Positions 10,132 to 48,409 of a stretch of DNA of 64,000 nt are shown here, piece after piece. Below the pieces are notes generated by a model. It was not told the origin of the DNA. It did no database searches and worked only from the letters and a program-made list of their open reading frames with translations. Location of the stretch: positions 868,001-932,000 of the forward strand of contig RSEE01000011.1 in assembly GCA_003971905.1 (NCBI GenBank), given 5' to 3'. Position 1 is the stretch's first letter. Each line of letters opens with the position of its first letter. Position numbers and translations under genes: made by a program. The stretch is from Moniliella sp. 'wahieum' (lineage: Eukaryota).

Positions 10132-12816
10132 TCACAAGTCATCCAACGAATCGTAGTCGTCCGTCAAAAACGGAGCGAGCATCTCGGTCTCAATCTCCGT
10201 CCCATCGGGCAACTGGATAGATCCTTGTGAGAGCGGGGCGCGCCGATTGCGACCCTGGTTCGTGCGGGCGGGTGCGGGAGGGAGGCGGAGGCGCGGGGCG
10301 GAAAGCCGGACCACCAAGGGTGGAAGCAGGCCTTGTCCTCCCCGACTGCGGGGCAGACGGCACGCGTGACGAGGACGCAGCGGATGGATCGGAGCCCGAG
10401 CCCGATCCCGAGCCAGGGATCGAGGCCTCGTGGGGGGGTGACTGGCGGGCGTAAGCTCGGTTCCCTAGATGGAGGTGTACGAGGGGATTGGGGCCTGCGG
10501 TCCAAGGAGCGGTCCAAGGGTCCGGGTTGAGCTTGCCGGTCAGCAGGTCCCATTGGCGGGTTAGGAGGGGACGCCGAAGCTGTGTCGTCCGGTGTGGCGG
10601 CGACGGTGGGGCGCGGCCGCTTGGGCGGGTGAGGACCGACGGATTCGTCAGACGGATCCGAGTCGTTGGATCGCTTTTGACCCTGCATAGTGGGCGTCAC
10701 GGTGGCTGCGATAGCTGTGCTGTAGGTCCCAGCGCAGGAGATGGACTGTGCGTTTGCATTGTGTCGAGGTCGGGCCGTGCGGCGTTGGTGGGAGCAGGAG
10801 GGCGAGGGACAGGCCACGGTTCAGCAGGGGAAGGCGCAGCCATAGGACCAGGGGGTGGCACCGTAAGTGGGGGCGGAGGTGGTGGGGGACCTTCTTCATC
10901 GCTGTCGTCCAGAGTCAGATCGATCACGCCGCTCGTCCCGCCACTTGGACGTGCTCTTGGAGCTTGTGAAGGTCGTGGGGGGGTGGAAATGGCAATCGCA
11001 CCTCCGGTCTCTTGGTCCATCTTGCCACTGGCAGGCCAGGCTCTGCTGGAACGACAGAAGCCGACGTGTTGGGCGGTTCGACTGCCGGGTGTTCATCCTC
11101 ATCTGAATCGTCTCCCACGGCAATTTCATCTCGGTTGGGCAAGTGCCACTGGCCATCGGGCTCGATAATTACACTGTCCACATTAGGATCCAGCTTCTCG
11201 ATAATCTCTTGGACATACTCGTCGACCCGGACATCGTCCCAGTCGATCACCTTGTTGCACACGGGGCATTGCCAGTTGGGCGAAGCCTCATTCGACCGCA
11301 AAAACGCGATAGGGTCAAAACATTGCGTGTGGGTGCACTTGTACGAACGGGCGGGCACTCTGAGGCGCTCAAGGCTCAGCTGGACAGCGCAAAGCGAGCA
11401 CACGTCAGACGCACGCATTCAAACATGGGGGGGGAAAGGACATACTGGACAAGTCAACGGCATTTCCACTGCTCCCATAATAACATCGTCGTCATCAGCG
11501 AGGGAGCGCATCAGTTTCAGCTCCTCTTCTTTGGGCAAGATTTTGGTTTTGAGAGTGGCGAGAATCTTGGCAGGGCGGATCACCTCGGCCCAAACAAGAC
11601 CTAAGTCGAATTCGGCCGCAGTGTATCGGTAGACAAACTCTGCATGATTGGTGCCGGGTTTGATGTGGCCTGTTACCACAGAAGACCCTATTGAAGGAGG
11701 AGCCAGCTTGGCCAGCTGAGGCATTCCAACTTGTCCTGGATGCTTCTTATTCCCCTTGAACGAGAAGGGAGTGCGGCGGTTATTGATTTGCAGTTCGGCA
11801 GTGGAGGGAAAAAGCACAGGTGCTTTGGTCTTGTTGTACTCGGCGTACAACAGCGAACGGTGCGGGGCAGAAACGAGGTAGATAACATGAGTCGGATTTT
11901 CGCCCATGATTTGGCGGACCATCGGCTGGGTCAAAATGAAATGGAACCGAGCCGTACGCGGCTCCTTAGCGGGGGGGCACCGGGCCACCGGCGCGAGGAA
12001 GCGCAGTGGCTTGAACAGAGGAAAGGGCTTGAAGGGCATGTCGGATAAATCAATATGCCAAGGCATCACGTGGGCGCCTGACTGTACGGGAATCGTCCGG
12101 CGAATGGGGCCAGGCGGGGGGGCGACGGCGGAGTGAACACGTGGGTTGTGTCAGGCACCTCACAACCTCTCACTGAGGTGGCTAGGGCACGGCTGGGATT
12201 TGGTGGCTGGGAGGGCCCGGTATTGGGTGGCCTAGTTCGGGTGGGATGGGAGGATGAAGACGAGTGTTTATAGAGACAATACCTAGGGCGATGTTGGTGG
12301 CGGTTGGGGAGACAGTGACTGGTTGTCCATGGCTTCGGGTAGAAGGATTTGGATGTAGCCCGGTGGTGGGTGGTAAGTGACGGTGACAGCCCTGTCAAAG
12401 GTCATTTGGACATCCACCATTTTGAGAAGGTACATCATCGCATTGTCGCCCGATGGCCCCATCTCTTCCAAGCGTTCAGTGACGTTGATGATGCGTCGGA
12501 TCAAGAGTGCCTTGCGACCATTATGGCTGATACGGTAGCCAAGGCTGTCGAGAGCGCGGATGACGGCTTGAAGCTGGGGGATGCGCAAACTGGTGAGAGT
12601 AGATTCCAGCGATACCAAGTGCTCGAATGGGAGGCTGCGAGGAGGTTTAGCGGGAACTTCGACGAGGGACCAGCCAGGGAAGGCGGGTCTGGGCGGAGCG
12701 GGTGCAGTGGGTGGTGGGTGCAGTGGGTGCAGTGGGTGCCGTGGGTGCTGTGCTGTGGGCGCAGCCGGGGTGGCAGGCGGGCGACCCGCTTGGGTGCCGC
12801 CACGGACGGCGCTCAT
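10132..12816 (-). CDS. SIZ1: Siz/PIAS-family E3 SUMO ligase (SAP-like, PINIT, SP-RING/MIZ)
   Basis: SP-RING: LTCP|LSLERLRVPARSYKCTHTQCFD...WQCPVCNK. PINIT-like FKPFPLFKP...FKGNKKHPG. SUMO-interacting motif VIDLTLDDSDEE. Several frameshifts. Confidence 0.9.
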
Positions 12817-13176: not shown

Positions 13177-16036
13177 ATGGACCATCCGCCCCCCCACTCG
13201 CCCACCCCGCCGCCGAGCCGTCGAAGCGCGTGCGCATCGGCTCTCCGGAGCCCGCGTCTCCGGCATCTCCAGCACCTCCTTCCGACCCCCAGGGCGGCGC
13301 CATGGCCGCTGCGCTCACCCGCCAGGCCGACAAGAAGGCTGTGCACGAACGGACGTGGGCGTGGAGGAATACCTCTCCTCCCAGCTCGCGCCGTTCCCGC
13401 TGTGATCAAGCAGCGTTTTCCGACTTTCAAGTGCGCGAGATCACCTTTGATGGGCAAATCTGTCGTCTGACAGCGGACGATCTGCTGCCCCCGCCCGGCC
13501 CGCTGCGCCAGCGCCTCGAGCGCGAACAGGCTGAGTTTCTGCATCCTGAACTGGTCCAGGAGCGCTGGCCAAGGAACAGGCCGAACGCGACGCTCGTCTT
13601 TCTGCTACCCAATCCTTCCTCCACCAACGGGCTTGGCCTGACGACGCACCGGCCCGCCTTGCCGCGGACGGGTGGAGCGAGCGGGAGATACAGCAGATCC
13701 ATGATCTTTGGCTTGCGGGGCCACTCAAACCGGGTCAAGGCCAAGGAGCGAATGGGGCGGGCGATCCGCCAAAAAAGGAAGAGGAAAGCACGACGACGGC
13801 CCCCTCGGCTGCTGCCGCGCCGGACGCACGGGGGAAACGCACCAACAAAGGCAAAATCAACGCAAACCCTCTGCTCCTGTCGATACGCGTGTCGTGCTCT
13901 GTCGCACGTACATGGACCGGGACATGCGTACTGCGGCGCATGCAACGATCCGGAGCCTGTTCCGAGAACACTTGACTTCGTCGGCCGTCACTGCGCAGCA
14001 AGCCAAGAAGTTGGATCCAGAGATGGAAGTGGAGGATGCGATTCTGAATGCGCCAGCGGACAATGGCAATGTGCCCCAACCATTTTTGACACTGCGATGG
14101 ACCAAGGGGAAAGTGGACAACCGTCGTGTCACCTCGTCTGACGAACTGGCAGCCAACCAAGCCCACCCGCCATTTATCACGTTTCTGCTGCAAAAGACCA
14201 ATCGGGAACTGTACGACGCAGCGGGCATCTTGACGCGCAACTTGGGCATGCAGCACAAGAGCGGTACAGTCACCCCTGCTCTCGCCTTTGCCGGGACGAA
14301 GGACAAGCGAGCGGTGACCACACAGGCCGTCACATTCAAACGGGGCAAGAAGACGGTAGAAGATGTGTACCTGGCGCTGAACCGGATTCTTGCACCGCAG
14401 CATTACCGTGCTGGCCAGGCCGGCCGCGACTCGGCGGGGCGACCGACGAGCCACAAGAGGAAAGGTACCGGTCCCTCGGACAATTGGGACAAGGATCGAA
14501 CGAGCTTGTTGGATGCCCTGACGCGGCGGGCGCCCAATGCGGTCCGGGTTGGCCGTTGGCCTATGTGCACCAAGAACTTCGACTTGGGTTTCTGCAAGGC
14601 AACGAGTTTGTCATTACGCTGCGCAATGTGAGCCGCGTCCAGCCAGGTGGACTGGGCGCCACTGCCGCGCTAATCCGACGATGCCAACGCGAGGCTGAGG
14701 CCGAGGCCGAACCACAACCGAGGTCGGGGTCGGAGGAGGAAGCGGCGGCGTCGGACCCCGAGTTGGAAGGGTTGGTGGCCCAAGCGATCCACGCTGGGAG
14801 AACAAGGGTGCATCAATTACTTTGGCTGCAGCGGTTTGGTACGACCAACGTTTCGACCCATGCGATTGGCGTGCTGATCTTCAAGGGCGACTACAAGGGC
14901 GTGGTGGATCTCATCATGGCCGACCGCATCACCGACAATCCTACCACCGCCCAGGCCCGCGCCGAGTACCGCGCGGGCAACTTGCAAAAAGCGTACTATG
15001 GTCTACCTCGCTCGTACGTGGGCGAGCGGGCGATCGTAGGACGCATGATTGACAATGAGCGCGCGGACGGGAGCACGATTGGTTCTTGATCCTCCAGGGC
15101 GTCGCGCGCAATTTGCGCATCATGTACTGCCATGCGTACCAGTCGTACGTGTGGAACAAGTGCGTCTCCGCTCGTCTGCGACGGGGGCGCAAAGTGATGG
15201 TCGGGGACTACGTCTTGGCTGATAAGCACGCGTCCTTGTCTGAGGAGGATGTCGATGGGGGCGACGCTGCTGCCGATGACGAGGAGGAGGGGGGGGGACG
15301 GGGGGAACCAACAGAATCCGACCCAGTCAATCCCAATGCCAAGAAAACCGACCGTCCCTCACTCCCGGCAGTCAAGGTGTTGACAGAGCAAGATGACCTG
15401 TCGCAATACACGCTGGCGGACGTGGTGATGCCCATGCCCGGGAGCGAGGTGCGGATCCCGGAGGATACGTGGCTAGGCCAAGAACTGGGACGGATTTACG
15501 CGTCGGATGGGCTGTCGCAACAGAGCATGTACTCGTCCGATTGGAAAGAGTACCGTATGCGTGGTGTGTACCGCCACATGGTCACTCGACCTCGCAACGT
15601 GCGCGCCAAACTCATTCGCTACACCGATCCCGAAGTCGACTTGACCGTCTCGGACGAAGATGCGGCGCTGGCACAGTTATGGCAGGACGGGCTCAGGGGC
15701 CCGTCCAACCCCCCCATTGACCCCACGACAGCCGCTGCGTTGGCGCCGCCGCCGCTGGGCCAAGCCGAGCTGGTCACAGAGGGTCAAGGGCCCTTCTTGG
15801 CGTTGCAGCTGGTGTTTGAGCTGCCCGTGTCGACGTATGCGACCATGGTGCTGCGAGAGGTGCTCAAGTCGGACACATCGCCCGAAGTGCAGCGCTTGCT
15901 CACGCTCAGCGGCGCCGATCGCAAGTATCGTGGGATGGGCCAGGATGCCCACCTCAAGGACGAGTCGGACAAGGACCCAGAACAGGGTGCCACACAACTT
16001 TCTACCGAGCCTCCCCGCCTGAAAGCGAGCCGCTAG
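13177..16036 (+). CDS. PUS7: TruD-family pseudouridine synthase Pus7
   Basis: Motifs FSDFQVREI, FAGTKDKRAVTTQ (catalytic Asp), GNEFVITLRNV, LQRFGT, MYCHAYQSYVWN, FELPVSTYATMVLRE, pieced across frameshifts. Confidence 0.93.
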
Positions 16037-18553: not shown

Positions 18554-20229
18554 ATGGGCATCCTGTGCTGCAAGCCCGACCCCGTCAACTACGATGGCCC
18601 TGTCGACCTCTACCACTTCAACCTCCTCCGCGCCGTTGGCCGCGGCGCCTTTGGCAAGGTCCGCGTTGTCCAACACAAGCAGACCAAGGCACGTACGCTT
18701 TCCTTCGCCTACCCCCTCAATGCACCACTGACCCCTCTCCCCTTATCCTCGCTTGTCCTACTCCACAGAACCTGTACGCGCTCAAGTACATCAACAAAGC
18801 CAAGTGCATCAAGATGCACGCTGTCTCCAACGTCATCCAGGAACGCATGCTGGAGGAGATCGAAAGCCCCTTTATCTGCAACTTGCGTGTACGTATTCTT
18901 TTTTCTTTCGTTCTGCACGAGCAGGCAGGTCTCTGACCCGATCTTCGTTCCTACTTTTTTTTTCCCCTCCCACCTCCCAGTATGCATTCCAAGATGACGA
19001 GAATCTCTTTATGGTGCTGGACCTAATGCTTGGTGGTGACCTGCGCTTCCACCTTGACCGGAATGGCAACATGCGCGAAGATATCGTCCGCTTCTATGTT
19101 GCCGAGCTGTCCCTTGCACTGGACTATCTGCACGGCATGCAAATTGTGCATCGTGATCTCAAGCCCGACAATGTCTTGCTGGATGACCGGGGGCATGTAG
19201 CTTTGACCGACTTTAACATTGCTGTGCACTACTCTTCCCGCCGGATGCTCACCTCGGTCGCTGGGAGCATGGCGTACATGGCGCCGGAAGTGCTGGCCAA
19301 ACGCGGCTACCTTTCTGCAGTCGATTGGTGGTCGTTAGGGGTGATGGTGTATGAGATGTTGTTTGGTCATCGACCCTTCAAGGGCAAAACCAATTCGTCC
19401 CTCACCAACGCGATCTTGCACGCTCGGTATGTCTTCCCGGACAACATCTCCGAAATTGTCTCTCCTGAAGCCGTGTCGTTCGTCAAGGCCTGCCTTGAAC
19501 GCGACCCGGCCAAACGGCTAGGCGCAGGCGGCCTCGCCGAGCTTCAGGCGCACCCTTGGTTTTCCGGTATGGACTGGACCGCCATTGCCAAGAAAGAAGT
19601 GACACCACCTTTTCAGCCTGACGTACGTCGTTCCCTCCTGCGCTCTGTCCTCGTGTTCTTGCTTGGTGTACTGACCTACCCACCCGCCTTGGCCCACAGA
19701 ACAAGCGGGCCAACTTTGATGCGTCCCACGAGCTGGAAGAACTGTTGCTGGAAGAAAACCCACTCAAGGCGCGTCGAAGAAAAGAAGATGTCGACCTGGA
19801 CTCCTTGTCGCCCGAGATGCGGTACATGGAAGAACACTTTTTGCCCTTTGACCATCTCAAGCAACGTCGCAAATCCTATTCCCCAGCTCGGACATGAGCC
19901 GCGCCAATAGCTCCCAAGTCGACCAACCTTTGGGCGAAACAACTCCGATGACCATTTGCCTCTGCCTCGCCACCGGGGCAAATGAGCCTTGGTGCGCCCC
20001 CGGCAACAGGAATGAGCTCGGTACTGCAAACCCCTAGAACGGGCAAAACTAAGCGGACCTACTACTACCCGCTTCGACCGCCTCGCGTCCCGCCTCCCAG
20101 CTCCTTCCCATTCTCCCGCCCAGGCCTCCTTGCCCGACCAGCAGGCGGGTCGAGCGCGGTTGCAGGGCAATGGCCGGCGTCGGTGCCGGTGCTGTCCAGC
20201 AAGGTCTGCTGGGGAAGACGGTGTGGTAG
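18554..20229 (+). CDS. AGC-group Ser/Thr kinase, YANK/STK32 family
   Basis: N-terminus MGILCCK, then VGRGAFGKV, YALKYINK, DLMLGGDLRFHL, HRDLKPDN, TDFNIA (the DFN variant typical of YANK), YMAPE. Three introns. The 3' end beyond about 19900 is uncertain. Confidence 0.88.
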
Positions 20230-22167
20230 GGGCGTATGCGAGTGCAGTGGCGAGGTAAGCGTGGTGGGTTGCGTGGTGGGTGTGTTGGTCGCAAGGTGTA
20301 GACTGCCACCACCCTGTCTTGTCTCTTTTGCATACTGAGGCTCCCGATCGATCGTTCTCTCGTGACACCGTGCTACTTGCTCGCCTTGTCCGCGTCCCCC
20401 CACCCTCTCGTTGGCTGTGCTATCTGGTTGGAGGTCTGGGGGACCTGAGGCTGGAGGTTGGATTTGAACTCAATGTCCAGACCCCAGTTCCAGGTCTCTT
20501 GGTTCGATCACGCGCCGTGATGGGCACACCTACATCTCAAGATGGGTGGCCAAAACATACGATACCCTGGTCTGACAGACACTTGTGCTCTGCTCTCCCT
20601 CTCTGGTCGACGCCTTTCTCTTCTTCTTTCTCATGCTCTCATCTCCCGTCCGCGTCAGTGCCAGGTCGATTAGCGCTTAGATCTTAGACCCTTTCCCTCT
20701 CATGTCACATGTCCATGTCATTGTCCTGTCGAATGGGAAGGCTGGGAACTAGAAGCTTGAAGCTTGAAGTTTGAAGTTGAAGCGAGACTGCTGGACCGAC
20801 ACTGGTGACGCGGTGACGGGAGTTGCTGCTTAAAGAGCTTAAAGCCGCTTGCAACTCGCCCACACTGGCGATACTTGTCACGGGCGGGCGCCGCCAGGGG
20901 GCCCGCCCCGGGGTTTTTGGGGTACAATCCCTGAGGCGACGGTAGGTCGACTCACGGTAGTTTCGCGCTTGGGCTGGTTGGTGTATCCGAGCGGAGCTAG
21001 GGACGAGGAGAGGCGGGCGGCTGCACGTGTGGCAAGGCTACGTCACCGGCTTGGGCCGGTAGGTCCGTAGTAACGTGTCTGAAGCCTCCGGGACTTGGGG
21101 ACGGGAGGAGGCAGAGGGGGACAAACACTTCCTCAAATGAGACTGGGAATCGACGCGACCAAAGGAGGGCTCGCGCGACTGGACTGACGAAGGGCTGGAG
21201 GACGAGGTCGGAGGAGATGTCGGACGCTAACAAGAGGAGCTGCCTGTACTGGATCAATTGGCTGGAAAACGGGCAGGGGTCGGACAGGATAGGCGGGAAA
21301 GGACGAGAGGATGACGAGAGGATGACGAGAGGATGACGACAGTGGAGACGAGAATGGAAGGTGGGGGAAAAGATCCCCATCAACCAGGGGTAGGTACAGG
21401 TAGGATCGCGGGGGCGACTATTGCCGCGCGGATGCATGGCCCTTCGGCCACGATGCTTAATTTAGCCAAACATCATCACACTTGGTTGGCCTGCTGAGCA
21501 CGCTCTACTGGGCATGTGCGGAGCAGGCGGGCCTTAGCTTCGGCCGGACCATCTCGAGTCGGCCGCAGCCCGTGACACACATGCTCCATTCCACTCCTCC
21601 TTCAGCAAAGGTAGTGGCGAGACGAGCTGAAAGCCACGCCGAGGGGTGGCCAGAGCAGGTGTGGGATGGGTCGGGGCGGAGTGCATACTGACCGTGACCA
21701 GTTGACAGATCAAATGCAGGGTGAGAGATTGCGACTGGGCTGCGCTGAGCATCTGCGATCTGACATGCATCTGCCACCAACTACCCTCCCGACGCTCGCC
21801 GAGGCGCGAGGGCTGCTGTTCGGGTCCAGACGCTGGGACGGAGCGAGGGACGAGTGACGTAACGATGGTACGGCCGGCTGCGGCAGAGGCCAGCGGCCAC
21901 CTGCCGCGGGTTCGCAACGGATGGGAGGCGCGCGGGCAGCAGCCCCCGGCAGCGCGCCCCACGCAGCGCAAGGCTGCCGCCGTGCCGCGGTGCTCAGCGC
22001 AGCCGCGAACGCTTCACGACCAGCTGGAAGCAGCATTGATGGGTCACGTGCCTCCCACCCAGGCTGAGTTTTATGGCATGCTGCTTACGGCGCATCTGCC
22101 CTTGTCTCCTGCGCCTTCCACCCCCTGCTCCCGCCCTCGCTCCCTCCCCATCACTCCCACCCCCTCC

Positions 22168-24529
22168 ATGGCGCCCACCCACACCGCCACCGCCGGGCCC
22201 ACGTCCGTCCACCCGCTCTCCAACCATGCCACCGGCAGCGCCGACCTCTTGCCTGGCCCCGACCCGGGCCCAGCCCAGCTGCAGCTCGTCACAAGCCGCA
22301 GCGAAGGCAACCTGTGGGGCGTCCACCCTGCCGCCGCTCCCTCCTGTCCTCCTCTTCTTCCTCCCTCCTCCTCCACCCCGACCCCCATGCGCGCGCCTTC
22401 CCGTACCGGCCCCTCACACCCGAGCAGCGCGACAAGTACGACACATGCCTCGCCTACTTTACCAGCACCGAAGTCTACCCCCAACAGCTCCCCGGCAAAG
22501 GCAAGGCCCCGCTCCCCCTGGCGCCACTGACCGACGTGGAGAAGATGCGGCTGATGACGCGCGAAAGTATCCTGCGCTACCTGCGTGCGACCAAGTGGGA
22601 CGTGGAGCAGGCCAAGAAACGGTTGACTGAAACGATTGCCTGGCGGCGCGAGTTTGGTGCCGATGCGATTTCGGCCGCCTATGTCGAACCAGAGGCCAAG
22701 TCGGGCAAGGAGACCGTTCTTGGCTTCGACCGACATGGTCGGCCCTTGCACTACATGCACCCCCACCGCAGCGATACCCCCGAAACCGAACGACAGATGA
22801 AGTATGCGGTGTGGATCTTGGATGCGTGCATTGACTTGATGCCGCCCGGGTGGAACAGTTAGCGCTGCTGATCAACTTTGAGAACAAGTCGCGCAACCCC
22901 ACCTCAATTTCCAATGCCAAGCTCATGCTCTACATTCTCCAGAACCACTACGTCGAACGATTGGGCGTTGCAATGTGCATCAATGGTGCGTCCTGGTCTC
23001 CCTCTTTCTCGGTGCTGGCCTATCGATCGACGTACCAACCTTCTAACCTCCTTGTTCCTTTTCACTACCCTCTGGCAGTCCCGTGGATCTTCAAACTCTT
23101 TTGGAACGCCATCCAGTCGTTTATCGACCCCAATACCAAATCCAAGTGCATGTTTGACGAGGCAATTATGGGCGAAGTAGTTGCTTCGCAATTGCTGGGG
23201 GACTTGTACGTGCTCTTCCTTTCTTGCCTCTACACTCATACCCATTTCCCCCCCCCCCCCTCCTTTGCTCTGCAACTATGCTGACCAATCACTGATTCCT
23301 ATGTTTCTCTCTACGCAGCGGGGGCGACCTTGACCCTTTTATCACCACAGCACGTACTGGCCCGCCCTGCTGCACACCCTGACCGAACGCAAAAAAGAAA
23401 TGATGCACCGTTTCTTAACCGTGTGGGGGCAAAGTGGGTGCGTCCGAGTACATCATTCGAGGGGGCGAGGATGCTTGGCCTGGATCGGCGCCAGCTCGCC
23501 CGCCCGATGTGCCGCGGCACGTCCCCAACCCGCACCCGGACCTCGCCCGGCCCAGCTTATCTTCCATCTCTCTTCCACACGGGATTCAGTCGTGGTCGAC
23601 ACCCCGTCCAAGGGCAACACTCCTTCCTCCTCGATCCCTCCTGCATCTGTCCCTGAACCTGCCCCTACACCTGCTCCTGCCCCTGCCGCAGCGGAACCAC
23701 CAGCCCCGGCTCAACCTCCCATCTTGTCTGTGGAAGACGATGGGGACAACGATTTGGAGCGGTACGTGTCAGCTCGGACCGACCTAGAGCCCGTGACGCG
23801 TGGACAGCCACTGGTGGCCTCGCCAGGCAACGAGATGGACCATCTGGACTTTTCCACGCCCGGGGAGACATCCGGGGCGACGCCGGTCGCGTCTCGTTCC
23901 AAGAATTGTCCGACGCGCCCCTGGGACCAAGGCAACCGGCCTTGCGCCGCCCGAGAGCAGGATAGCTCGGTCGGGGAGCCAGCGGTCCATGGGATCCAGC
24001 GATACCCGCGCGGTCCGGCTCGTCCGTGAGCAAGCCTGTTGTCTCTACTCTGAAAGACACGCGCGACACGGCTTCGTGCCGCACGTCCAAGTCTCGCTCG
24101 GGGACACGTTCCGTGGCAGCTTGCAAGGTCTCGTTCGCCATGGCTCGCATTTACTTCACCATCCGCGTGCGCCGCGCAATTCCACGTCGGGTGCGCCGGC
24201 CGGCGGGGGGGAAGGAAACGTCATCGCGCGCCTCACTTCGCTCGCGTGGGTCCTTGTCCCCTAACGAGCAGGAAGCGGCGGCTGCAGCTGCAGCTGCAGC
24301 TACGCCGGCCTCGCCATCGCTAGGCCATTCGCATTCGCGTCGCTCCTTCTCCCCTGGCCGGCATCGTCTGAGCCGGATGCTGCGCAGGCGGACCGGTTCG
24401 CACGATACGCCTTCGTCTGAAGAGCATGGTCAGCACACTGCCCACGCGCTCGCGATGGCCCCTTCGCGTTCCGACTCGGCGTCAGAATCACGATCCGGAT
24501 CGGGGGGTCGGGGTCGGAACCGAGACTGA
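22168..24529 (+). CDS. PDR16: Sec14/CRAL-TRIO lipid transfer protein (Pdr16/Sfh3-like) with long low-complexity tail
   Basis: Motifs TRESILRYLRATKW, RLTETIAWRREFG, GKETVLGFDRHGRP, ILQNHYVERLG, FIDPNTKSK. Two introns and several frameshifts. May continue into the MoaD domain. Confidence 0.88.
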
Positions 24530-24643
24530 CGCATCCCAAACGGAGCGAGTCGGACGATTTGGTCGCGCATGCGGCGGCGGTGCGGGCCAAGGAACCCGAG
24601 GAGCGGAAAGCGCGCGCGACGCACGATGCGCTGACCAAGTTGG

Positions 24644-25008
24644 TTGGCAAGCAGGGCGTTGGCGCGTTGGGCGTTGCGGGTGGAGCGAGCGACGGCGACG
24701 AGCGGGACGAGCGGGACGAGTGGGACGAAGGAGGACGGGGCGGTGGTGGTATCGGTGCTGTACTTTGCTGCGGCACGCACTGCGTTGGGCAAGGGGGAAG
24801 AAGAGGTGCGTGTGCCGCCGCCGCACTCGGTCGCGACGCTGGCAAGGGAAGTGGAGCATCGCCACCGCTCCGACGCTGCGTTCGTCCAGGTCCTCGCGTC
24901 GTCGCGCTGGGCGGTGGATGAGGAGCTGGTGGAGCCCGAGGGAATGGGGTCGACGATGCTGCACACGGGGCAGACGGCGGCGCTGTTGCCGCCGGTGAGT
25001 GGGGGTAG
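24644..25008 (+). CDS. MOCS2A: Molybdopterin synthase sulfur-carrier subunit (MoaD/MOCS2A, ThiS fold) domain
   Basis: VSVLYFAAAR...WAVDEELV...AALLPPVSGG. Restoring one G in the G5 run at 25001-25005 places TAG directly after the C-terminal GG. There is no in-frame ATG upstream of the domain. Confidence 0.85.
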
Positions 25009-25255
25009 GCGGCGGGGCGAGATGCACCGGCTGCACTGAAGGTGATTTAATCCAGAAACTAGAATCGAGGGGAGCGTCTGCAACAGATACGTAAGGCAGG
25101 GCGCGTGCACGTGAGGATGGGCTTACCTCAGCGGGGGGAGCGGAAGAGTGGCGGCGAGAAGAGGATGCCAATGGCCGATGACGAATGTAAAGTCCGCTAG
25201 CCAGCGGGAAGCGTGGTGGGTGCAGCTGCTACAAGCGAACGCCATCTCTACTGCG

Positions 25256-28200
25256 ATGCTCCCCACGCGAGCGTCTGGAGTGCGCTCGGCTGTGGGCGCA
25301 GTGGGTGCTGCGGCGGTGCGGCTGCCGGTGCCGCTGTCCGCTCGCTGCCCCGCTCGCTGCCCGCCGCCCTCCCCTCGCCACGCCCGCCGCGTCCGTTGCC
25401 GTCGCCCGCCGCCTGCTCGCCACCTCCGCCCCCCCCCCCTTCGCGCAGGAAGCGCCCGACCCGCTCGCGCGACGGCCAGCACTCCGACAAGCACGCGCGC
25501 CGACGACCAGGAGGACGACCAGGACGGTGTCCAGCCGACCGCCGCCGGCCCGGCCGTCGCTCGGCCCGCACTCATGCTACTGCCGCTGCCGATGCCAATG
25601 CCAATGCCAAGCCAACGACCACGACCACCCCATCGAAATTGACTTGGACATTGATGACGCCGACTTTGACCTGGACGAGGGCCAGCAATCATGACCATTG
25701 GCGGTCCCAACGGCCAGACCCGCATCGTCGTTGTGCGCCACAACCCCCCTCGCCTTCCAGCCCATCTCACCGCTCCGACGAGCCTGCCGCCCTCGGAGCC
25801 GAGCGACAAGCCCGCCGCACGCGCAAGAAGAAACCGGCATCTACCCCCGAGGCGCCCAACGCTCCCTCCCCCACATCCCGTCGCCGCCCGTCCAGCAAGG
25901 CCGTCGAGACGGCTTCAGATTCGTCAGCGGCGGCCGCGAACGGGGCGGCGGCCGGACCGGATTCCGCCTCGGGCACCAACGGCAACTCGGACGGGGACGC
26001 GCGCCGCCGCCTCCTCCCTCTGGTCCTCCTCCGCCCCCGAAACGTACCCCCAAGTACTCGCGCTTCCGATTGCCGGTCGTCCGCTCTTCCCGGACCACCG
26101 CAAGGTGGTGGTGGTGACGGACCCCAAGGCGATGGCGGCGGATTGACAAGGTGATCCAGGCTGGTGAGCCGTGGGTAGGCGCGTTCCTCCTCAAGGACGG
26201 GCACGAAGATGCCGATATTCTCACTTCGGCCGAACAGGTGCACCAAGTGGGTGTTTTTGTCGGATCGTTTCTACCTGGCGTTCCCGCCCGGTTGGCCCCG
26301 AGGGAGCGACCGATGGTCCTGCGAGCTCCGAGGGCGACCGTCTCTCCGTCTTGCTTGTGCCTGTGCGTAGGATCTCGATTGAGGATGTGTTTCAGCCCAA
26401 CATGGTGACGGTGGCCCCCAAGGCTCCCACGCCGACGGCCCCTGTTGAGCCTGCGTCGGCTGATTCGGCCCCCACGGCTGCCAAGGCTGAGGGATCCGGG
26501 TCTAGCGTGGCCGAAGAGCCAGAGGTCGAGGGCAAGAAGATCACGCCTGCCGAGCTAACGGAACGCGAGGCTGCTCAAGCGCCCGAGCCTGCCGAGGTGA
26601 CTTCGTCCGTTGAGCGCGAGACGGAAACGGCGGTGGAAGGGGTGCATCCTCGCCAGGCCGAGTCCGCTCAAGCGGAAGTGCTGCATGATTTGGAAGTGTC
26701 AATGGTGCAGGTGCACAACTACCCTATTGAGCCGTACGAGTTGACGACGCCGCTCAAGACCAAGATGAACGAGATCATCTCGGCGCTCAATTCGTTCTGG
26801 ACCTTGACTGCCCGTTCGCCCACCGAGTCCAACTTGGCCATCTACAAGAGCCGTGTGTCGCCCGAGATGTTGGCCAACCCAGAACAATTGTCCGACTTTG
26901 TTGCTGCGATCAGCGGGATCGAGTCGGGCCATGAGCTGCAGCATTTGCTTGAAGCGCGAACGATTGAAGAACGGTTGGACTTGGCGCTGTCGACAGCGCA
27001 GAAAGACTTGCTGAACCTTGAGATGCAGATCCGGTTTATGCGCGAGACGGACCAAAAGACCCAACAGCGTAACAAGGAGTTTGTCCTGCAAGAGCAGATG
27101 AAACAGATCAAGAAGGAGCTGGGTTCCGAAGCCGAACGTGAAACGGTGGCTGCCAATTCCAAGCCAAGGCGGATACACTGGCCATGCCCGACGAGGTACG
27201 CAAGGTTTGACGAAGAACTGAGCAAGTTCCGTTCCCCCGAGTCCCAAAGCTACGACCAAAACGTCACGCGCAACTACCTCGAGTGGCTCACCTCTCTTCC
27301 CTGGGGGATCACAACCAAAGAGCGCTTGTCGACCAAGAATGCCAAGGCGGTCTTGGACAAGGATCACTTTGGTTTGAAAGATGTCAAGGACCGCATCCTC
27401 GAGTTCTTGGCCGTAGGCCAACTCAAGGGCTCCATCCAAGGCAAAATCATCTGTCTCCATGGTCCGCCAGGCGTGGGCAAAACGTCGATTGGCAAATCGA
27501 TTGCGCGTGACCGATCGCAAGTTCTTCCGCTTCTCCTTGGGTGGTCTGGGGGACTATGCTGAGATCAAGGGCCACCGCCGCACCTACGTGGCGGCCATGC
27601 CGGGCAAGGCGGTGCAGGCGCTCAAGGCAACTCAGTCGGAGAACCCTGTGATTCTGCTGGACGAGGTGGACAAGGTTGGCGAAGGTCGCGCGCACGGCGG
27701 AGACCCAGCGGCCGCGCTGCTCGAGATGCTGGACCCGAACAGAACCATAACTTTTTGGATTTGTACCTGGATGTACCGATTGATTTGTCGCGTGTCTTGT
27801 TTGTCTGCACGGCCAACGACCCTTCGCGCATCCCGCGGCCGCTGTGGGACCGGATGGAAGCGATTGAAGTCACCTCCTACACCCCGGCCGAGCAGTTCCA
27901 GATCGCCAAGGGTTACCTGATCCCCAATGCGATGGAAGAGAATGGGTTGACGGGAGGCGACATCTCCATGCCCGATTCGGTCATTACGCATCTGCTCCAA
28001 GGCTACATTCGCGAGTCGGGCGTTCGTGGGCTGCAAAAACGCTCAACAAGGTGTACCGCAAGATCGCGTTCCGTTTGGTGACCCAGTACGGCGATGTGGT
28101 AGACGAAATCCAGCCGGAACGCCCGAGCAGGAAGCAGCGGAACACAAATTGGTCCAAGACGCCGCCGAGGACGCCGCCAAGGCCACTGGGTCTTCCCAAC

Positions 28201-29105
28201 AGGCGGAAATCCAAGCGGGCGAGGCGGTGCTCAAGGCCAAGCAAGACAAGGACCAAACCCTTGATTGAACGGCTCCACTTGCCCAAGGATTTCAAGTTGG
28301 TGATCAGCGAGAGGACGTGCACGACTTTTTGGGCCCGCCGTACCCCAACACCGACCGGCTCTTCCCGGCGGTCATGCCGTCCGGGGTGTCGAACGGACTG
28401 GCATTTACCAACACGGGAGCTGGTACGCTCACGCCCATTGAGGCCACCTGTTGCCCGGTACGGGCCAGGTACGGTTAACGGGCCACTTGGGGCAGGTGAT
28501 CCAAGAGTCGGCACAGCTCGCCCTGAGCTGGGTCAAGTCGAATGCGAGCTTGCTGGGCGTGGAAAGGGGTGGATGGAAAAGAAGGACTTGCACTTGCACA
28601 TGCCCGATGGCCAAACGCCCAAGGACGGTCCGTCGGCCGGGTGGCGCTTATCACGTGCTTGGTATCGCTGGTGCTGAACAAGCCTGTGCCACACACGTTG
28701 GCCATGACGGGCGAAGCGTCGTTGCGCGGGATGGTGTTGCCCGTGGGCGGGCTGAAGGAGAAACTGATTGCAGCCCATCGCAACGGGATGAAACAACTGA
28801 TTTTGCCCGCGGCAGTGCAGCCGCAAGTGGAAACGGACGTGGCGAAACCAATCCGAGACGCTATGCAGATCCATTATGTCCACGATGTGTTTGCCGCGCT
28901 TCAGGTGGCCTTTGGCCCCGGCCCTTGGTCCGCCGAGGCTGACAAGTTGGCAGAGCAACGTGCTTCCGATGCTTCCTCGTCGCCATCGCCGTCGCCATCG
29001 CCATCGACCTCACCGTCACCCTCACCGCCCCTCCCTCCTTCTGACGCACCATCGTCCCCGTCGTCCCCTTTGCCCTCGGCAACCGACCGCCCACCGGCTA
29101 ACTAA
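25256..29105 (+). CDS. PIM1: Mitochondrial Lon protease
   Basis: Arg/Ala-rich presequence-like N-terminus, [18 protein letters not shown], Walker [23 protein letters not shown], Walker B ILLDEVDK, catalytic PKDGPSAG and MTGE...PVGGLKEK. Multiple frameshifts. Confidence 0.95.
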
Positions 29106-29834: not shown

Positions 29835-31987
29835 TCAGATCGACGTTTCAAGGAAGGCATGGCAGGGTAGGTAACCAGGTAGGCAGGGGGCATCAAGTGT
29901 CCGTCGGAGCACCGCTTGGGGGGGGAGGGTCTCTGTCGGCACGACTACTACGCTCAGAGGATTTACTTGTGTCCCGACCGCCACGAGCCGGCCGTACGAT
30001 CGGTGGCATCCTCGGGCGTGGCCGTGACCAAGGACCAAAAGGCCGCCTTGTCCGTTGCCCACGAATCCCGCTTGGTGTGGGGGGTGAATTGTACGCGCAC
30101 CCCAGGGACCGAAGCAAGGTCCATTGCCTCCACCGCTTTATGCGCCAACCGGTTCAGCGCTCCAACCGACGCTGCGTCGTACCTTCGAACCCAGAGCGCG
30201 AGGCGGTGCAGACCCGGACGAACAGTTACGACGGCGCCGGTTACCAAGTCCATATCATCCTCATCTTCCGTAACAGTTTCCGGCGCCAACTGTTCCCCAA
30301 TCAAAGCGAGCACGAGCCAAGTCCAGGACCGATCCAGCAGCGCCGGATTGGATACTGGCAAGGTAACGGTCCATCGGCCACCTTGCGCGTTGGCCCGGTC
30401 CTCCCATGCCGGCGTGACACCGCGCTTAAACAAGTGGTAGGAGAAGGAGCTTCCGCTAGAACTGGAACTGAAGCTGGAGCTGGAGTTGGTCTGGCCCGAG
30501 GTATCCGCGTTGCCCAACGTAGACGGTCGACGGAGCGACTTGAACGTAGCCATAAAACTTTCGACCGTGTCGAACGTGCCTAGGTTCTTGAGGGACGCAG
30601 CCCAGCGTCCTTGCCCTTTGGCACTGCGTGCTTCCTGCCCCTCGGAGGCATCGGCGGTCGAGGCCGAGGCCGAACGCGGTGCGCTGGTCACGTCCGGGTA
30701 GGGAAGACGAGGACTTGTTACGCCGACGGCTGTGGCAGAGGGGGCAGGCGCCGCTTGCGAAGGATTCCACCCCGTTGAATCAAAGTATAACGTCCTGCAA
30801 AGTCGGCAACAGAGTAGAGAGAAAAAACAAACGGCAAGCGGCGTGGTTCACATCATCGCGTACACGTGGCCCAAACGAAGGGAGGGGGGGGGGGGGGAGA
30901 GGAGGGTTGTGAGGCAGCACAGAAAAAACGAGAGTCCAGTCCATTCACCCAAAATGTAACAAAAAGAAGAAAAAGCAAACAAAAACAGGGGACATCAGTA
31001 TTTAGACGAAAAAAGAAACCCACAAAAACGTGGACATCAGCATTCACCGCACTGACGGCATGGAGAGAGTATGTGCAGTTGGATATGATTGCCGTCTCTC
31101 AACAGAAAGTGGGGAGATGGGGTTAAGCCTACTGTGAGGCAAACAGAACTCCTCGCCAGCCTTGGGACACTTGCCACTGGGACCAAAGCCTCATCTACCA
31201 AACCAAAAGGGAAACAAGAAAAAGGAAGAAAAGAACATACCAAGGTTCCGTAAGGGGATGCGAGACCGATCCGTCCGGGCCAACCTCACCCTCGTTCGTC
31301 TTGGTGGGCTTGACGGGCGAAGAAGGCCGGGGGGAAGCGGGGATGTAGAAGAGCAGGTGATTGTGCCTCCGGGGTACTTTGTGGTCCGCCAGGTCTAGGG
31401 CCAAGGAGTTGCCTACACGGCGAGAGGCAATGGACGGCTGGCTGCCGTCAAGCCCGTCGGCGGGGGCGGAGCTGTTGAGGGCGGGGGGGAAAGCACGTGT
31501 GGGCGAGAGGGGGGCGGATGGGGCAGTGGCGGACGATGGATGGGCTGCGTCGGGCGCGAGACGACCGGCGAGCTCGAGGCGTCGCTTTGGGCGGTCGGGC
31601 GAGGCGGGCGGGGGCGGGCCGGGGAGGGGTGGAAGCGGTGGGCGAGCTGGTCGAGGGTGGGGCCACGCTTGGTGGGCGACGGTGGGTGGGCCATGGAGGA
31701 GCGGGAGGGGCGATGGTGGTGGTGAAGCAGGTGCCGGACAAGGCGGGCCGAGGGAGCGTGGGCGGCGGAACAATGGAGGGGGTTTGGTCTGAGATGCTGG
31801 ATCGGCGGCGTGGTTCGGCGGCCGGTGTTGGTGTGTTGGTGCCGAGGCAGAGTGCTGGTGCGGGCGCCGCTTTGCTCCGAGCGTCGGCCGCTGGCGCGGC
31901 ATCCGTGCGGTCCCCGCGCGTCACGTGCCAGCCTTGGCCTGTCTTGGCCTGTCTTGGGCTGTCGCTAGGGCACCTTAGGTAAGCCAT
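29835..31987 (-). CDS. eIF4E-family cap-binding protein with long N-terminal extension (atypical paralog)
   Basis: HPLTEPW|TLYFDS spliced over a 446-bp intron (31240-30795), then GTFDTVESF, YHLFKRGVTPAWED..NAQGGRW, LVLALIGEQL, RLALWVR. Ends approximate. Confidence 0.88.
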
Positions 31988-32171: not shown

Positions 32172-34555
32172 ATGCCTGCTCCCCAACCCGCCCGCGGCGG
32201 GCACGCCGAGCCCCGCGGCCATCGTCCTCCACGCCCCTCCTCCTCTGCCGATCTCTCGCTCAGCATCAAGCCCCGCCTCAGCGAGGCCGCCGCCTACCTC
32301 TCTCCCTTTGCCACGGCCGCTACCCAGTCCGAGTCGGCGCTGCGCGAGGGCCAGCAGGCCGAGACGAATCGGCTCCTGGCCGACCTGGCTCCTCATATTA
32401 TGCATCCTCGCACTCTCCAGGCTGCTGCTAGCGCCAGCGCCTCCATCGCCACTGCCCGTTCCGCCGTCGACCCTACCATGGCCATGATCCTGGGCCGTCC
32501 AGTGCCGGTCTTCGTATCGTCAACCCTGGCCGTGCCTTACTCTCGCTTCCGCCAGATGGTCAAGAACGGGCCCATCACGTCTTCTGACCTCCGCTGGCCG
32601 AGACCAGCAACCAGATCCTCCTCTCTGCCACCTTGGGGGCGATCTGGACCAAGAACCGGCCGGCATCGCGGCCGACGTGTCTCTCTTGCGTGGCTTCCAG
32701 GCCACCGTGCCCTCGGCCCTGGATGGTCGCAGCCGCCGGCGGAAAGCGCGTGGGCGCGATGCCCCGCATTTGGGGTTGCTCGAGGCTGGCAACACGGCCC
32801 GGGGGCTTTGACCGACCAACCAGCGAGCGTTCGTTGGAGACCCTGATCGCCAAGGACGAGCGCAAAGTGCGCAGGGCCACACGCGCCAGCGCAACGTCCC
32901 TCTTGGCGTCGATGAGCTCCAAGCTCAACTGGACGAAATTGCGCTAGACAAGGAGAATCTCGGGGTGCGGAGGGTACGTGTAACTTGCTTTTGTTGTTTG
33001 TTGGTTGCTGGAACTCCGGGCGAACAACTAACCGCTTCTGTGCTACCTGACAGAGACTCGTCACCGACGACATGGACGCAGTTACCGCCAAAATTCATGA
33101 GCTGGAACAGATCAAGAAGAACTTACAGCGGGCCTGTTGCGCTTGCAAGAAGATGAACTCGAACTGAATGAGGAACAGAGGGCTGTGTCGGACGCGCTGG
33201 CACTGCAACGCTACCATACCTCAATGCCCGGTGGTGGGTTGTTGGGATCCTCAGAAGGAGTACGGCCTGCCTCGATGCGGCCCAATAAACGCAGTCATGC
33301 ACCCCTGTTCCTCCCCTCGGAGCATGACGATCTGCCTCGTGGAGTTGCATTTATGACCCTCTCGGGCCACACGGCGCCTGTTACGTCGCTGGACTTTTCC
33401 GAGCCGTATGGCACGTTGGTGTCGGCGGCGCTGACGATACCGTGCGGGTATGGGACTTGACTCGGGGAGACGAAGTGGGCCGGCTGCGTGGACACAGCGG
33501 TGCGTATCTCCAGCTTGATGCGTGGTGAATGTAGGAGACTAACTTGTTTGGCTAATGGTAGGGTCGGTCAAGTGCCTTCAGGTGGAGGATGAGTTGTGCA
33601 TTACGGGTGGTAACGAAGCCACTCTGCGTTTATGGGATCTGAGGCGAGTGGAGGACCACGAAATCTGGTTGCAGCTCCAGCGAAATGGGAGTATGGAGCC
33701 AGGGCGAGAGCGAGATGCACTGGACGAACAGCCGGATACCTCCTCCAACGCCCCAACCCCAGTTGAAGATGGTGAGGAGCGAACGGACCCTTGTCTCAAG
33801 GCGCTGGAGGGCCATAGCAAGGCGGTGACCGCGCTTTATCTGGACGATACCTGTCTCGTGTCGGGTGCGTCCGACAAGACGCTGCGGCAGTGGGACCTGA
33901 ACACGGGACAGTGTGTTCTGACCATGGACATTCTATGGGCGATCAACAATCCCGGCTCAATGCAAGCTTGGGCGGGAACAAACGTATGGCTACCGATCCC
34001 TTAACAAGCGCAGGCCCAACATTACCTCCCACCCTCAACTTGCAAGCGCTTACCGGCAACTTTTCCTACCCTTCTCCTCCTCTGGCAGACGGAAGCTGGG
34101 ACATGTATCAAGACTTTGTGGGTGCAGTCCAGTTCTGGGGGTACGCTCTGGCGTCGGGCTCGGCAGATGGGGCGGTACGGATGTGGGACATGCGCACGGG
34201 CCAGGCGCACCGCACCCTGCTCGGTCATTCTGCTCCCGTCACAACGCTGCAGTTTGACGAGACGCATGTCGTCTCGGGGAGTCTGGACAGCACCATCAAG
34301 ATCTGGGACTTGCGTACGGGTTCGGTGTGCGAGACGATCCGGTTCGATTACCCGGTCTCGTCGCTCCAATTTGACACGCGCAAGATTGTCGCGGCAACGG
34401 GGGAGAATGGGGTGAAGGTGTTCAACCGCGTGTCGATGGAGACGAGCTCCTTGACGCTCAATGGCCATACAGCGCCAGTGGAGAAAGTGCGCTACATGGA
34501 CTCGTATGCTGCGTCGGGCGGGCGTGACCACCAGGTGAAGATCTGGTCGCTTTGA
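32172..34555 (+). CDS. MDV1: Mitochondrial fission adaptor Mdv1/Caf4 (coiled coil + WD40)
   Basis: Coiled coil LQEDELEL, then [66 protein letters not shown]. Confidence 0.9.
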
Positions 34556-38899: not shown

Positions 38900-39189
38900 G
38901 GAGCGAGGCTGTCGGATGGCTGCGGTCGACGCCGGCGGGCTGGAGGCGGAGCGAAGGGCAGCTGTTCAGACCGAGCGGAAAGCGCAGCCAATCAATCGGC
39001 AGCCATCGCCAACTAGGGCATCCCTGTTACGTCAGATGGCCCGCCCTCGTATAAGACTGGCTCCCACCCTGGTCGTGCGCGACGGCAGCCACGATCACAA
39101 AGACGAATCTTTGCATCAGCAACCCACCGATCCATGGCCTAACTAACCACACACGCCCTCCCCTCTCCCTTCGCCTCCCCTGCCTCGCT

Positions 39190-44340: not shown

Positions 44341-44660
44341 TTCATGCACTCCTTATTTCTCTGCACCACACCACTGTGGCACTCACATGAACATCTCACA
44401 CAAACACACGGACGGAGACGGAGAGATGTTTATAGAAAGGATTCGCAAAAATCAACACACTGGCAAGGAGTGTGGCCTATACAGACCTGCATTCTATGAG
44501 CCAAAAAGTCGAAGCTATTAACATGCATCAAATAAGTTAGAAAGGGAAGGATGAGCCTTATGCCGCTATGGGCGAGACGAGTCTTGAGCCCAGGATTGAA
44601 GAAAGATACGAAAGGAAGGGAACCATCGATAAGAACCACAGTTTTTTGTTTGCCGTTTTT
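44341..44660. repeat. Diverged dispersed repeat B, copy 2
   Basis: Collinear with 41458-41890 in the same orientation. Confidence 0.8.
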
Positions 44661-48248: not shown

Positions 48249-48409
48249 CAGAGGAGTCAGCGCTCAGCATTAATCCCTCCGCTCCGATCACAAGGAGAGT
48301 AAAACGAGGGTAGTCACGAGTGTCACAGTCGGGGCTAAGGCGAGGGAGACCAGATTCGGACTAGGCCAAAAAAGGGGTGCAGCAATCGTTCGTGGGGAAG
48401 AAGCAAGAA

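Follow-up and report, generated by a model that had tools for sequence, protein, structure and literature searches.

A Pdr16-type lipid-transfer module probably fused to a C-terminal MoaD/MOCS2A domain in Moniliella sp. 'wahieum'

Can the small subunit of molybdopterin (MPT) synthase, MoaD/MOCS2A, be encoded as the tail of a lipid-transfer protein? This question is raised by a locus of Moniliella sp. 'wahieum' (GCA_003971905.1), located in a 64,000-nucleotide (nt) stretch of contig RSEE01000011.1 (positions 868,001 to 932,000, forward strand), hereafter called the window. The sequence of 22168-25008 on the plus strand is best explained as one three-exon gene of ~880 codons, which would encode a Pdr16 module, a linker and a MoaD domain with a terminal Gly-Gly (GG). 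A preliminary description had proposed a Pdr16-MoaD fusion here, and this proposal is now supported by 13 relatives that carry the parts in one uninterrupted chain and by a collinear, stop-free alignment of the gene's last exon to two of them. We put the probability that the fused open reading frame (ORF) is real at roughly 0.93.

The gene model was built by an intron- and frameshift-aware protein-to-DNA alignment, with the relatives P0007 and P0072 as guides across exons 1-3. The gene was identical to P0007 in 235 of 432 columns and to P0072 in 214 of 391. Its parts are as follows.

22168-22986, plus strand: exon 1, with a probable ATG at 22168, a weakly conserved N-terminal region, CRAL_TRIO_N and the first two-thirds of CRAL_TRIO
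22987-23078, plus strand: intron 1, 92 nt, GTGCGT...CAG, phase 1, splitting the Val codon of C-I-N-V-P-W
23079-23205, plus strand: exon 2, the last third of CRAL_TRIO (VPWIFKLFWNAIQSFIDPNTKSKC...QLLGD), placed by the second CRAL_TRIO stretch found by Pfam and by the alignment
23206-23318, plus strand: intron 2, 113 nt, GTACGT...CAG, phase 2, with TT + C giving the Phe of GD-F-GGDLD
23319-25006, plus strand: exon 3, with the Pdr16 C-terminal helices, the linker and the MoaD domain
23319-23480, plus strand: beginning of exon 3, with the helices at the Pdr16 C-terminus (GGDLDP.YHHSTYWPALL...MMHRFL..CGGKVGASEYIIRGGED)
23481-24742, plus strand: linker, ~420 codons of low complexity, probably disordered, in three frames as assembled
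24743-25006, plus strand: MoaD/MOCS2A domain, 88 codons in a single frame (VVVSVLYFAAART ... RWAVDEELVEPE ... ALLPPVSGG)
25001-25008, plus strand: gene end, where a G5 run (25001-25005) codes for Gly-Gly (25001-25006) and a TAG lies one base out of frame

The ATG at 22168 is the probable start codon, in a region where the N-terminus of the family is only weakly conserved. As assembled, exon 1 uses three frames, switching near 22390-22401 and again at ~22853 (PPG|VEQLALL), and the start of exon 3 shifts at ~23340 (CCCTTTT) and ~23422 (a G5 run). The dynamic programming (DP) of the alignment placed intron 1 at 22990-23078, and the relatives have CINVPW unbroken. Similarly, intron 2 was placed at 23210-23318 by DP, and its boundary was adjusted by eye to the GTACGT site. 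Intron 2 is missing from the relatives P0006, P0036, P0047 and P0058, in which exons 2 and 3 form one ORF, and P0001 begins within an intron homologous to it. At the other end of the gene, the assembled MoaD frame continues for 10 codons beyond GG to a TGA at 25037-25039. One extra G in the G5 run would set the TAG right after GG; the run is probably short by one G through an assembly indel. In each of the 13 fusion relatives the chain stops directly after VSGG.

The relatives were found by a HMMER search with the MoaD ORF against 1.84 billion cluster representatives, in which matches at E <= 1e-3 were kept. Most of the 132 matches were ~80-110 residues long, the size of free MoaD. At E <= 1e-10 seven matches were left; six were long proteins matched at their extreme C-terminus, and the seventh, P0004, was a low-complexity protein with 11 matched stretches. 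A word-based search with the MoaD domain gave 11 candidates among proteins of 51-165 amino acids (aa), none of which scored, and three matches among longer proteins (P0001, P0002 and P0003). P0001 (590 aa, 66-67% identity in MoaD) and P0002 (505 aa, 55%) are single chains that run from the end of a Pdr16-type protein (GGDLDPVYDHATYWP...GASEYIIRGGEDAWPGSAPARPPDVPR; GGDLDPVYDH / MLHRF..GASEY) to LLPPVSGG. Altogether, in 13 proteins the C-terminal segment of Pdr16 is followed by a disordered linker and by a MoaD domain that closes with PPVSGG, each in one uninterrupted chain. The chains that end in the fused MoaD have 365-925 residues, the motif G[AS]xE[WYR]..[RKF]GG is kept in all 13, and PPVSGG is invariant among them.

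The combination of CRAL_TRIO with ThiS, which the preliminary description had suggested looking for, was present in eight of 20 matches scanned with Pfam, long ones having been chosen from the 132. Four of these carry full-length CRAL_TRIO_N, CRAL_TRIO and ThiS (P0007, 925 aa; P0030, 768; P0063, 757; P0072, 693), and P0006, P0036, P0047 and P0058 are single ORFs with the end of CRAL_TRIO and ThiS. In five further scanned proteins ThiS follows the Pdr16 C-terminal motif. P0007 is the hypothetical protein K437DRAFT_254528 of Tilletiaria anomala UBC 951, a member of Ustilaginomycotina; it bears the UniRef name 'CRAL-TRIO domain-containing protein', and its database record already lists all three Pfam accessions. 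The architecture is thus already in public protein sets, unremarked, and the family is not new to databases. A word search with residues 400-925 of P0007 returned only P0007 and P0005. An Atlas search with the whole of P0007 returned CRAL_TRIO clusters only, with scores of at most 0.82, and no cluster joining both families. Other kinds of MoaD fusion were also seen among the matches of the HMMER and word searches: P0003 (227 aa) and P0027 (220 aa) are MoaD-MoaE proteins, P0067 (274 aa) joins a MoCF_biosynth (MogA-type) domain to a ThiS at the C-terminus, and in P0086 (397 aa) Abhydrolase_2 comes after an N-terminus that resembles MoaD.

Next, 23317-25006 was laid on P0001 and P0002 with a frameshift-aware protein-to-DNA alignment written for the purpose. 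Both alignments were collinear from the end of CRAL_TRIO to GG and crossed no stop. Against P0001, 304 of 611 columns were identical with 10 frame changes, and against P0002, 266 of 588 with eight. Because such an alignment is free to hop between frames, the linker was tested alone, with the Pdr16 end and MoaD removed, against 100 composition-preserving shuffles of each guide. The linker scored 543 against P0001 (shuffle mean 253, maximum 285; z = 19.2) and 434 against P0002 (mean 234, maximum 278; z = 15.1), and none of the 100 shuffles reached the real score in either case. For the composition of the window's linker, the chance stop rate is 0.022 per codon, and 450 open codons would have P ~4e-5 per lineage. 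Stops are present in all three assembled frames, four per frame in 414 linker codons. At the counterparts of both apparent stops (24527-24529 and 24632-24634), the chains of the relatives continue through conserved motifs, which at 24527-24529 are ...HPQRSGSDDLVAHAAAV and ...HPERSESDEMAAHAAAV.

Among the fusion relatives, linkers measure 222-497 residues, with 78-86% disorder-type residues, and no Pfam family was found in the linkers of the 13 proteins at E <= 1e-3. Mean pairwise identity among them reached 74% for CRAL_TRIO and 59% for the helices behind it, and stood at 46% for MoaD and 19% for the linker; both end domains are therefore under selection. Within the linker, short conserved islands stand out, and the following features were placed in the window.

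23718-23780, plus strand: island PILSVEDDGDNDLERYVSART, conserved with relatives
23805-23828, plus strand: island QPLVASPG, conserved with relatives
24121-24159, plus strand: island LQGLVRHGSHLLH, matching GFQDFV(K/R)GGSHFF(K) of the distant members P0005, P0007 and P0008
24275-24301, plus strand: poly-Ala island, a GCN run coding for nine alanines, conserved with relatives
24338-24391, plus strand: island RRSFSPGRHRLSRMLRRR, conserved with relatives
24532-24588, plus strand: island HPKRSESDDLVAHAAAVRA, conserved with relatives

Two islands are family-wide, E.F.TP...PL[ED]R.FS and GFQDFV[KR]GGSHFF (LQGLVRHGSHLLH in the window), and the clade of the window has two extra ones, RRSFSP.RHRLSRMLR and HP.RS.SD..AHAAAVRA. 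PL[ED]RxFS and RRSFSP presumably resemble phosphorylation sites of basophilic kinases.

The assembled sequence itself is broken in many places, so how the breaks are to be read was examined. Direct reading of the sequence located the G6 run of the preliminary description at 24502-24507, and the TGA at 24527-24529 indeed closes the frame ...SESRSGSGGRGRNRD. The protein-like second frame (GSGSEPRLTHPKRSESDDLVAHAAAVRAKEPEERK...) was likewise found, as was the TGA at 24632-24634 in the MoaD frame, before which there is only ATG-CGC (24626-24631). The MoaD frame then reads ...VVVSVLYFAAAR...ALLPPVSGG, with no ATG between that TGA and the MoaD domain. The two indels proposed for the tail turned out to be too few: stops alone force at least four switches in 23319-25006, and the homology path uses 8-10. 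A second shift near 24685 does exist but cannot be pinned down, falling at 24671 with one guide protein and at 24707 with the other. The two intervals concerned are as follows.

24502-24529, plus strand: G6 run and apparent stop, the site of the first shift, placed by DP at 24505 (P0001 as guide) or 24520 (P0002 as guide)
24632-24731, plus strand: apparent stop and repeat tract, inside which the last frame change must lie (DP: 24671 or 24707)

Three tandem 9-nt units (GACGAGCGG/GACGAGCGG/GACGAGTGG) occupy 24697-24731, immediately 5' of the MoaD domain, and translate as ERDERDEWDE or TSGTSGTSGT by frame. These repeats and the nine-Ala GCN run at 24275-24301 are likely sites of length variation and assembly slippage.

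Along the homology path there are ~12 frame changes over ~2.6 kilobases (kb) of coding sequence, and the shifts that can be placed precisely are all at homopolymers (GGG at 22853, CCCTTTT at 23340, G5 at 23422 and G6 at 24502). The claim that indels are ubiquitous in this assembly was upheld by two conserved genes of the window, in which Lon AAA, Lon_C and TruD move from one frame to another without a gap in profile position on at least four occasions.

26168-29102, plus strand: Lon protease gene (LON_substr_bdg, AAA, Lon_lid, Lon_C), in several frames, by Pfam
13705-16033, plus strand: TruD/Pus7 gene, in several frames, by Pfam

As observed, Lon AAA steps from profile position 21 to 23 where one ORF gives way to an overlapping ORF in another frame, Lon_C occupies three frames whose profile positions overlap (49-101, 87-119 and 109-203), and the frame of TruD switches at profile position 247. 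No space for introns is left at these junctions, and the frame breaks thus belong to the assembly and not to the fusion gene itself; homopolymer-type assembly errors, rather than real stops, are their best explanation. The window's own open path, as read in the preliminary description, did not exceed chance: when forced frame switches were counted in 250 windows of the same length on both strands of GC-rich DNA, 63 were crossed with four or fewer. A plot of GC content at third codon positions gave too weak a signal in the Ser/Ala/Arg-rich linker to assign frames. Where an assembly is rich in indels, an open path is no proof on its own, and the case for the fusion rests on the relatives. ORF-based readings anywhere in the window need homology support.

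The C-terminal domain was then compared with known families. Pfam ThiS (PF02597) matched residues 41-124 of ORF 24635-25039, that is, 24755-25006, with 37 bits (cut-off 22.5), E 5e-9 and the full profile (1-76 of 76). The best NCBIfam model was TIGR01682 moaD (46.3 bits, E 5.5e-12); SAMP1 followed at 2.4e-3, and no ThiS model matched. When a 69-sequence profile was run against the PDB, human MOCS2A (5mpo_A) came first (E 2.8e-20), ranks 2-9 were eight more chains of the MoaD/MoaD-ThiS family, and no SAMP chain came before these, the SAMP1 chains standing at ~5e-4. An AlphaFold2 model of the domain had a beta-grasp fold with a predicted local distance difference test score (pLDDT) of 94.9 and a predicted template modelling score (pTM) of 0.86. 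Foldseek ranks 1-9 held eight MoaD/MOCS2A chains (template modelling (TM) score 0.66-0.80 by query), with 6jbz_B, 6jc0_A and 5mpo_A among those on top; rank 4 was 2m19, the Haloferax volcanii protein HVO_2177 (TM 0.77). Sequence profiles and the predicted model thus agree in pointing to MoaD/MOCS2A for the domain, and it is likely, judging from its sequence, that it is still a sulfur carrier.

The N-terminal module was assigned by homology to the Pdr16/Sfh3 type and is closer to Pdr16 than to Sec14 or other Sfh proteins. Pfam found CRAL_TRIO_N (PF03765, 47.5 bits) and CRAL_TRIO (PF00650, 34.2 and 57.3 bits in two frames) in 22068-23284. ORF 22383-22859 matched yeast Pdr16 chains with E 8.9e-29, as against 1.1e-5 for Sec14, and P0072 matched the solved Pdr16 chains with E 3.6e-57, the match reaching residue 372, as against 6e-13 for Sec14. 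A complex prediction between the Pdr16 module (70-375) and the MoaD domain (598-693) of P0072, run without controls, scored 0.00 and is evidence neither for nor against contact.

A separate start for MoaD was looked for at the same time. In the fusions, the nearest Met lies 15-279 residues before the first MoaD strand and at non-homologous positions (measured in 12 of the 13, the pattern having missed P0047), while the free MoaDs P0010, P0011, P0013, P0022 and P0023 have a Met 4-9 residues before that strand. The only candidate ATG in the window, at 24455 (MAPSRSDSASE...), aligns to a Pro in P0001 and to a gap in P0002. The alternative of a separate ATG or a bicistronic layout, left standing by the preliminary description, therefore found no support, with no conserved Met near the fused MoaD. 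Two other layouts were rejected as well. A bicistronic MOCS2-like reading fails on the lack of an overlapping MoaE frame and on an upstream frame that is conserved as protein, and for a MoaX-like MoaD-MoaE reading no MoaE was found in ORF 24635-25039 or in the scanned downstream ORFs of at least 100 aa. Across the window's ORFs of at least 100 aa, of which 312 of 327 were scanned with Pfam, there was no MoaE and no second ThiS; the other 15 were alternative-frame ORFs overlapping 22040-24998.

A tree of the MoaD domain was made from 116 rows, after 18 matches that do not end in GG had been set aside. The window groups with P0001 and P0002 (Shimodaira-Hasegawa-like approximate likelihood ratio test, SH-aLRT, 96), and the other 11 fusions form a weakly supported group (86) together with the 108-aa row P0051. 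The well-supported branches force only one change of the fusion label, and none of 500 label shuffles was as clustered. A single origin is compatible with the tree but is not shown by it, and the shared linker islands favour one origin. Branches of the fused domains are no longer than those of free ones. Among Atlas clusters, the one nearest the fused domain holds free basidiomycete MOCS2A proteins of 94 aa, with a score of 0.88 that serves as a lead only. Free MOCS2A thus appears to be the norm in the phylum and the fusion a lineage variant, and the best explanation of the sequences is a fusion inherited in a fungal lineage that includes Ustilaginomycotina.

Several observations weigh against these conclusions. 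Every frame of the assembled gene is interrupted, and the four full-length relatives are gene models, while the nine others are ORF fragments. The TIGR01682 score of 46.3 bits is below the curated value of 66.15, and the free homologues P0010 and P0011 behave alike at 48-49 bits. In the clade of the window, GQTAALLPPVSGG stands in place of the family's GGEEVA(I/V)IPPVSGG. The MoaD domain might be redundant or repurposed in fusion-bearing genomes. On the tree the fusions do not come out as a single clade, and the fusion label needs three changes. Finally, the supposedly free row P0051 falls among the fusions; no Met precedes its first strand, and it is probably a piece of some other fusion protein and not a free MOCS2A.

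How would such a protein work? In known systems, sulfur is borne by the small subunit in the form of a thiocarboxylate on the conserved double glycine at its C-terminus; Cnx5/MOCS3 adenylates and sulfurates this subunit, which acts together with the large one, as described in the available part of a review of the molybdenum cofactor (Moco) (PMC9370521). The Moniliella protein would be made as one chain, and its free C-terminal GG would be adenylated and thiocarboxylated by an activating enzyme (E1) of the Uba4/MOCS3 type. The activated end would then insert into the large subunit MoaE/MOCS2B, so that the MoaD domain would serve as MPT synthase's small subunit while leashed by the flexible linker to the lipid-binding module. 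This module would be found wherever Pdr16 is found, in yeast at lipid droplets and the endoplasmic reticulum (ER). Since GG would already be the C-terminus of the chain, no cleavage would be chemically needed and the domain could act tethered. The crystallised human subunit offers weak support for tolerance of N-terminal extensions by MoaD: the chain of 5mpo_A has 106 residues, of which the profile covers 23-106, leaving ~22 extra residues at the N-terminus. From the sequence, we rate it an even chance that the MoaD domain acts while tethered and not after release.

The comparison with known proteins puts this arrangement in context. P0007 and the 12 other relatives share with the window the order of CRAL_TRIO_N, CRAL_TRIO, Pdr16 helices, disordered linker and MoaD-PPVSGG; however, P0007 has only 41% identity to the window in MoaD and shares two short islands only in the linker, whereas P0001, P0002 and the window form their own clade with extra linker motifs. 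The free proteins MOCS2A, Cnx7 and MoaD (5mpo_A of human, 1fm0_D of E. coli and 6jbz_B of mycobacteria) share the beta-grasp fold, the full profile and the PPVSGG tail, but have ~80-110 residues and their own start, whereas the window's MoaD is the C-terminal domain of a predicted ~880-residue protein and has no start of its own. Yeast Pdr16/Sfh3 (4fmm, 4m8z, 4j7p), a phosphatidylinositol/sterol transfer protein of the Sec14 family, comes nearest to the N-terminal module among solved structures, also in the helices that follow CRAL_TRIO; it ends after these helices at 351 residues, and the window protein would add ~500. Sfh3 is described as associating with lipid droplets (in part of PMC3937096) and as protecting against azoles (in part of PMC4331669). 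MoaX of M. tuberculosis, MoaD-MoaE of Deinococcus, P0003 and P0027 are like the window in having MoaD within a larger polypeptide. In the MoaX type, however, MoaD is N-terminal with an internal GG, whereas in the window MoaD is C-terminal, GG is probably terminal, and the partner is unrelated to Moco synthesis. MoaX is described as needing cleavage after GG for activity (in part of PMC4326299), and DRJAMM as cleaving MoaD-MoaE (in part of PMC8832034). Gephyrin and plant Cnx1 are eukaryotic Moco proteins that are fused and anchored to the cytoskeleton (in part of PMC9370521), a precedent by way of working and not by homology; unlike the window gene, they serve the Mo insertase step with other domains, and are anchored to actin, not by a lipid-binding module.

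Other readings of the locus were weighed against the tethered fusion, and two of them would remove the fusion altogether. If there were two genes, the Pdr16 tail would end before 24530, an assembly error would hide the start of a small MoaD gene, and the continuous reading would be an artefact of permitted frame hops in GC-rich DNA. Stops in all assembled frames and the chance windows crossed with four or fewer switches (63/250) speak for such a split, and the ATG at 24455 could open MAPSRSDSASE...; however, that Met is unconserved, the upstream RRSFSP.RHRLSRMLR is conserved in frame with the downstream part, both domains share one uninterrupted chain in 13 relatives, and linker homology stands at z = 15-19. 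Two genes are therefore a very improbable explanation. We would give equally little credence to a true pseudogene with frameshifts as real mutations: ~12 frame changes in ~2.6 kb of coding sequence might suggest decay, but the conserved neighbours Lon and TruD/Pus7 are broken alike inside Pfam domains, the placeable shifts sit at homopolymers, and the homology path is free of stops with 50% identity over the exon and 66% over MoaD, the MoaD domain itself being unbroken.

The remaining two readings accept the fusion and differ on what it does. The working MOCS2A might still be a free small protein, released by proteolysis of the linker or made separately, from an internal transcript on which translation begins at a non-AUG codon or a distant AUG; the fusion would then be an expression vehicle only. 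A free MoaD of ~80-110 residues is the rule and the size of most of the 132 matches, as in the nearest Atlas cluster (0.88, again as a lead); other MoaD fusions need cutting, as far as is described for MoaX (PMC4326299) and for MoaD-MoaE with DRJAMM (PMC8832034); and a long disordered linker is open to proteases. Against release, the GG of the MoaX type is internal and exposed by cleavage whereas here it is probably already terminal, no dibasic or other obvious site is conserved in the alignment just before the MoaD domain, no Met is conserved, and the conserved islands suggest that the linker has its own role. Release is thus unlikely, though it deserves to be kept in mind. Less credible still is that the MoaD-like domain has left Moco synthesis to become a cis-acting ubiquitin-like module of the lipid-transfer protein, with a Urm1/SAMP-like GG end for conjugation, with sulfur transfer to another acceptor, or as a protein-binding domain. 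The beta-grasp sulfur carriers SAMP1 and Urm1 do occur among the sequence and fold neighbours, and the clade of the window is divergent just before PPVSGG; however, every method ranks bona fide MoaD/MOCS2A (TIGR01682, 5mpo_A) above Urm1, ThiS and SAMP, the PPVSGG signature of MoaD is invariant in 13/13 fusions, and the branch lengths of the fused domains do not exceed those of free ones. The tethered small subunit is the reading that we prefer.

Beyond this preferred reading, the fusion may be a functional coupling, that is, a Pdr16-type protein with a leashed, E1-activatable and thiocarboxylatable GG, and not mere co-expression; we regard this as doubtful. It could take two possible forms. 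The MoaE dimer and the MOCS3 sulfur relay might be recruited to lipid droplets or the ER, with MPT synthesis at a membrane surface. Pdr16 is dimeric in crystals, which would mean two leashes per MoaE dimer. Alternatively, a Urm1/SAMP-like GG end might attach the lipid-transfer protein covalently to its targets. If coupling is real, the basic and Ser-rich islands (PL[ED]RxFS, RRSFSP.RHRLSRMLR) would be regulatory switches.

The rest of the window was annotated with Pfam, and ten further genes were recognised, none of which belongs to Moco synthesis.

6810-8518, minus strand: purine/cytosine permease
10927-12150, minus strand: PIAS-type SUMO ligase (PINIT and zf-MIZ)
18732-19907, plus strand: protein kinase
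29966-30847, minus strand: eIF4E
33543-34552, plus strand: WD40 protein
37380-38262, minus strand: GOST seven-transmembrane protein
39147-41324, plus strand: TLDc protein
51501-52256, minus strand: sugar transporter fragment
58382-58801, minus strand: SLX9
59793-60689, minus strand: bHLH factor

The GC content of the window peaks at 24001-26000 (68.5%, against 59.7% overall), which covers the distal linker, MoaD and the region 5' of Lon. Two regions, 43351-44536 and 46400-51150, have few or no stop-free frames of at least 100 codons, a GC content of 52-56% and no Pfam match in the ORFs present; they could be intergenic sequence, AT-richer repeats or a degraded element.

In the full-text literature, a scope that left out subscription journals and supplements, we found no published description of a Sec14/CRAL-TRIO-MoaD fusion, and the available portions of PMC9370521 and PMC11489736 make no mention of one. 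The former, a review of Moco, treats MOCS2A/MoaD in these portions as a free small protein and makes no link to lipid-transfer proteins there. What would be new is MOCS2A as the C-terminal domain of a lipid-transfer protein. Names such as 'hypothetical' or 'CRAL-TRIO domain-containing' could lead surveys for free MOCS2A to score these fungi as having no small MPT-synthase subunit. A fusion that is kept despite 19% linker identity is a classic Rosetta-stone signal, which would mean that the two activities come together in the cell or else that a MoaD tethered at its N-terminus is fully competent. The finding bears on the assembly of MPT synthase, on the spatial organisation of Moco synthesis in fungi and on roles of the Pdr16 family beyond azole tolerance.

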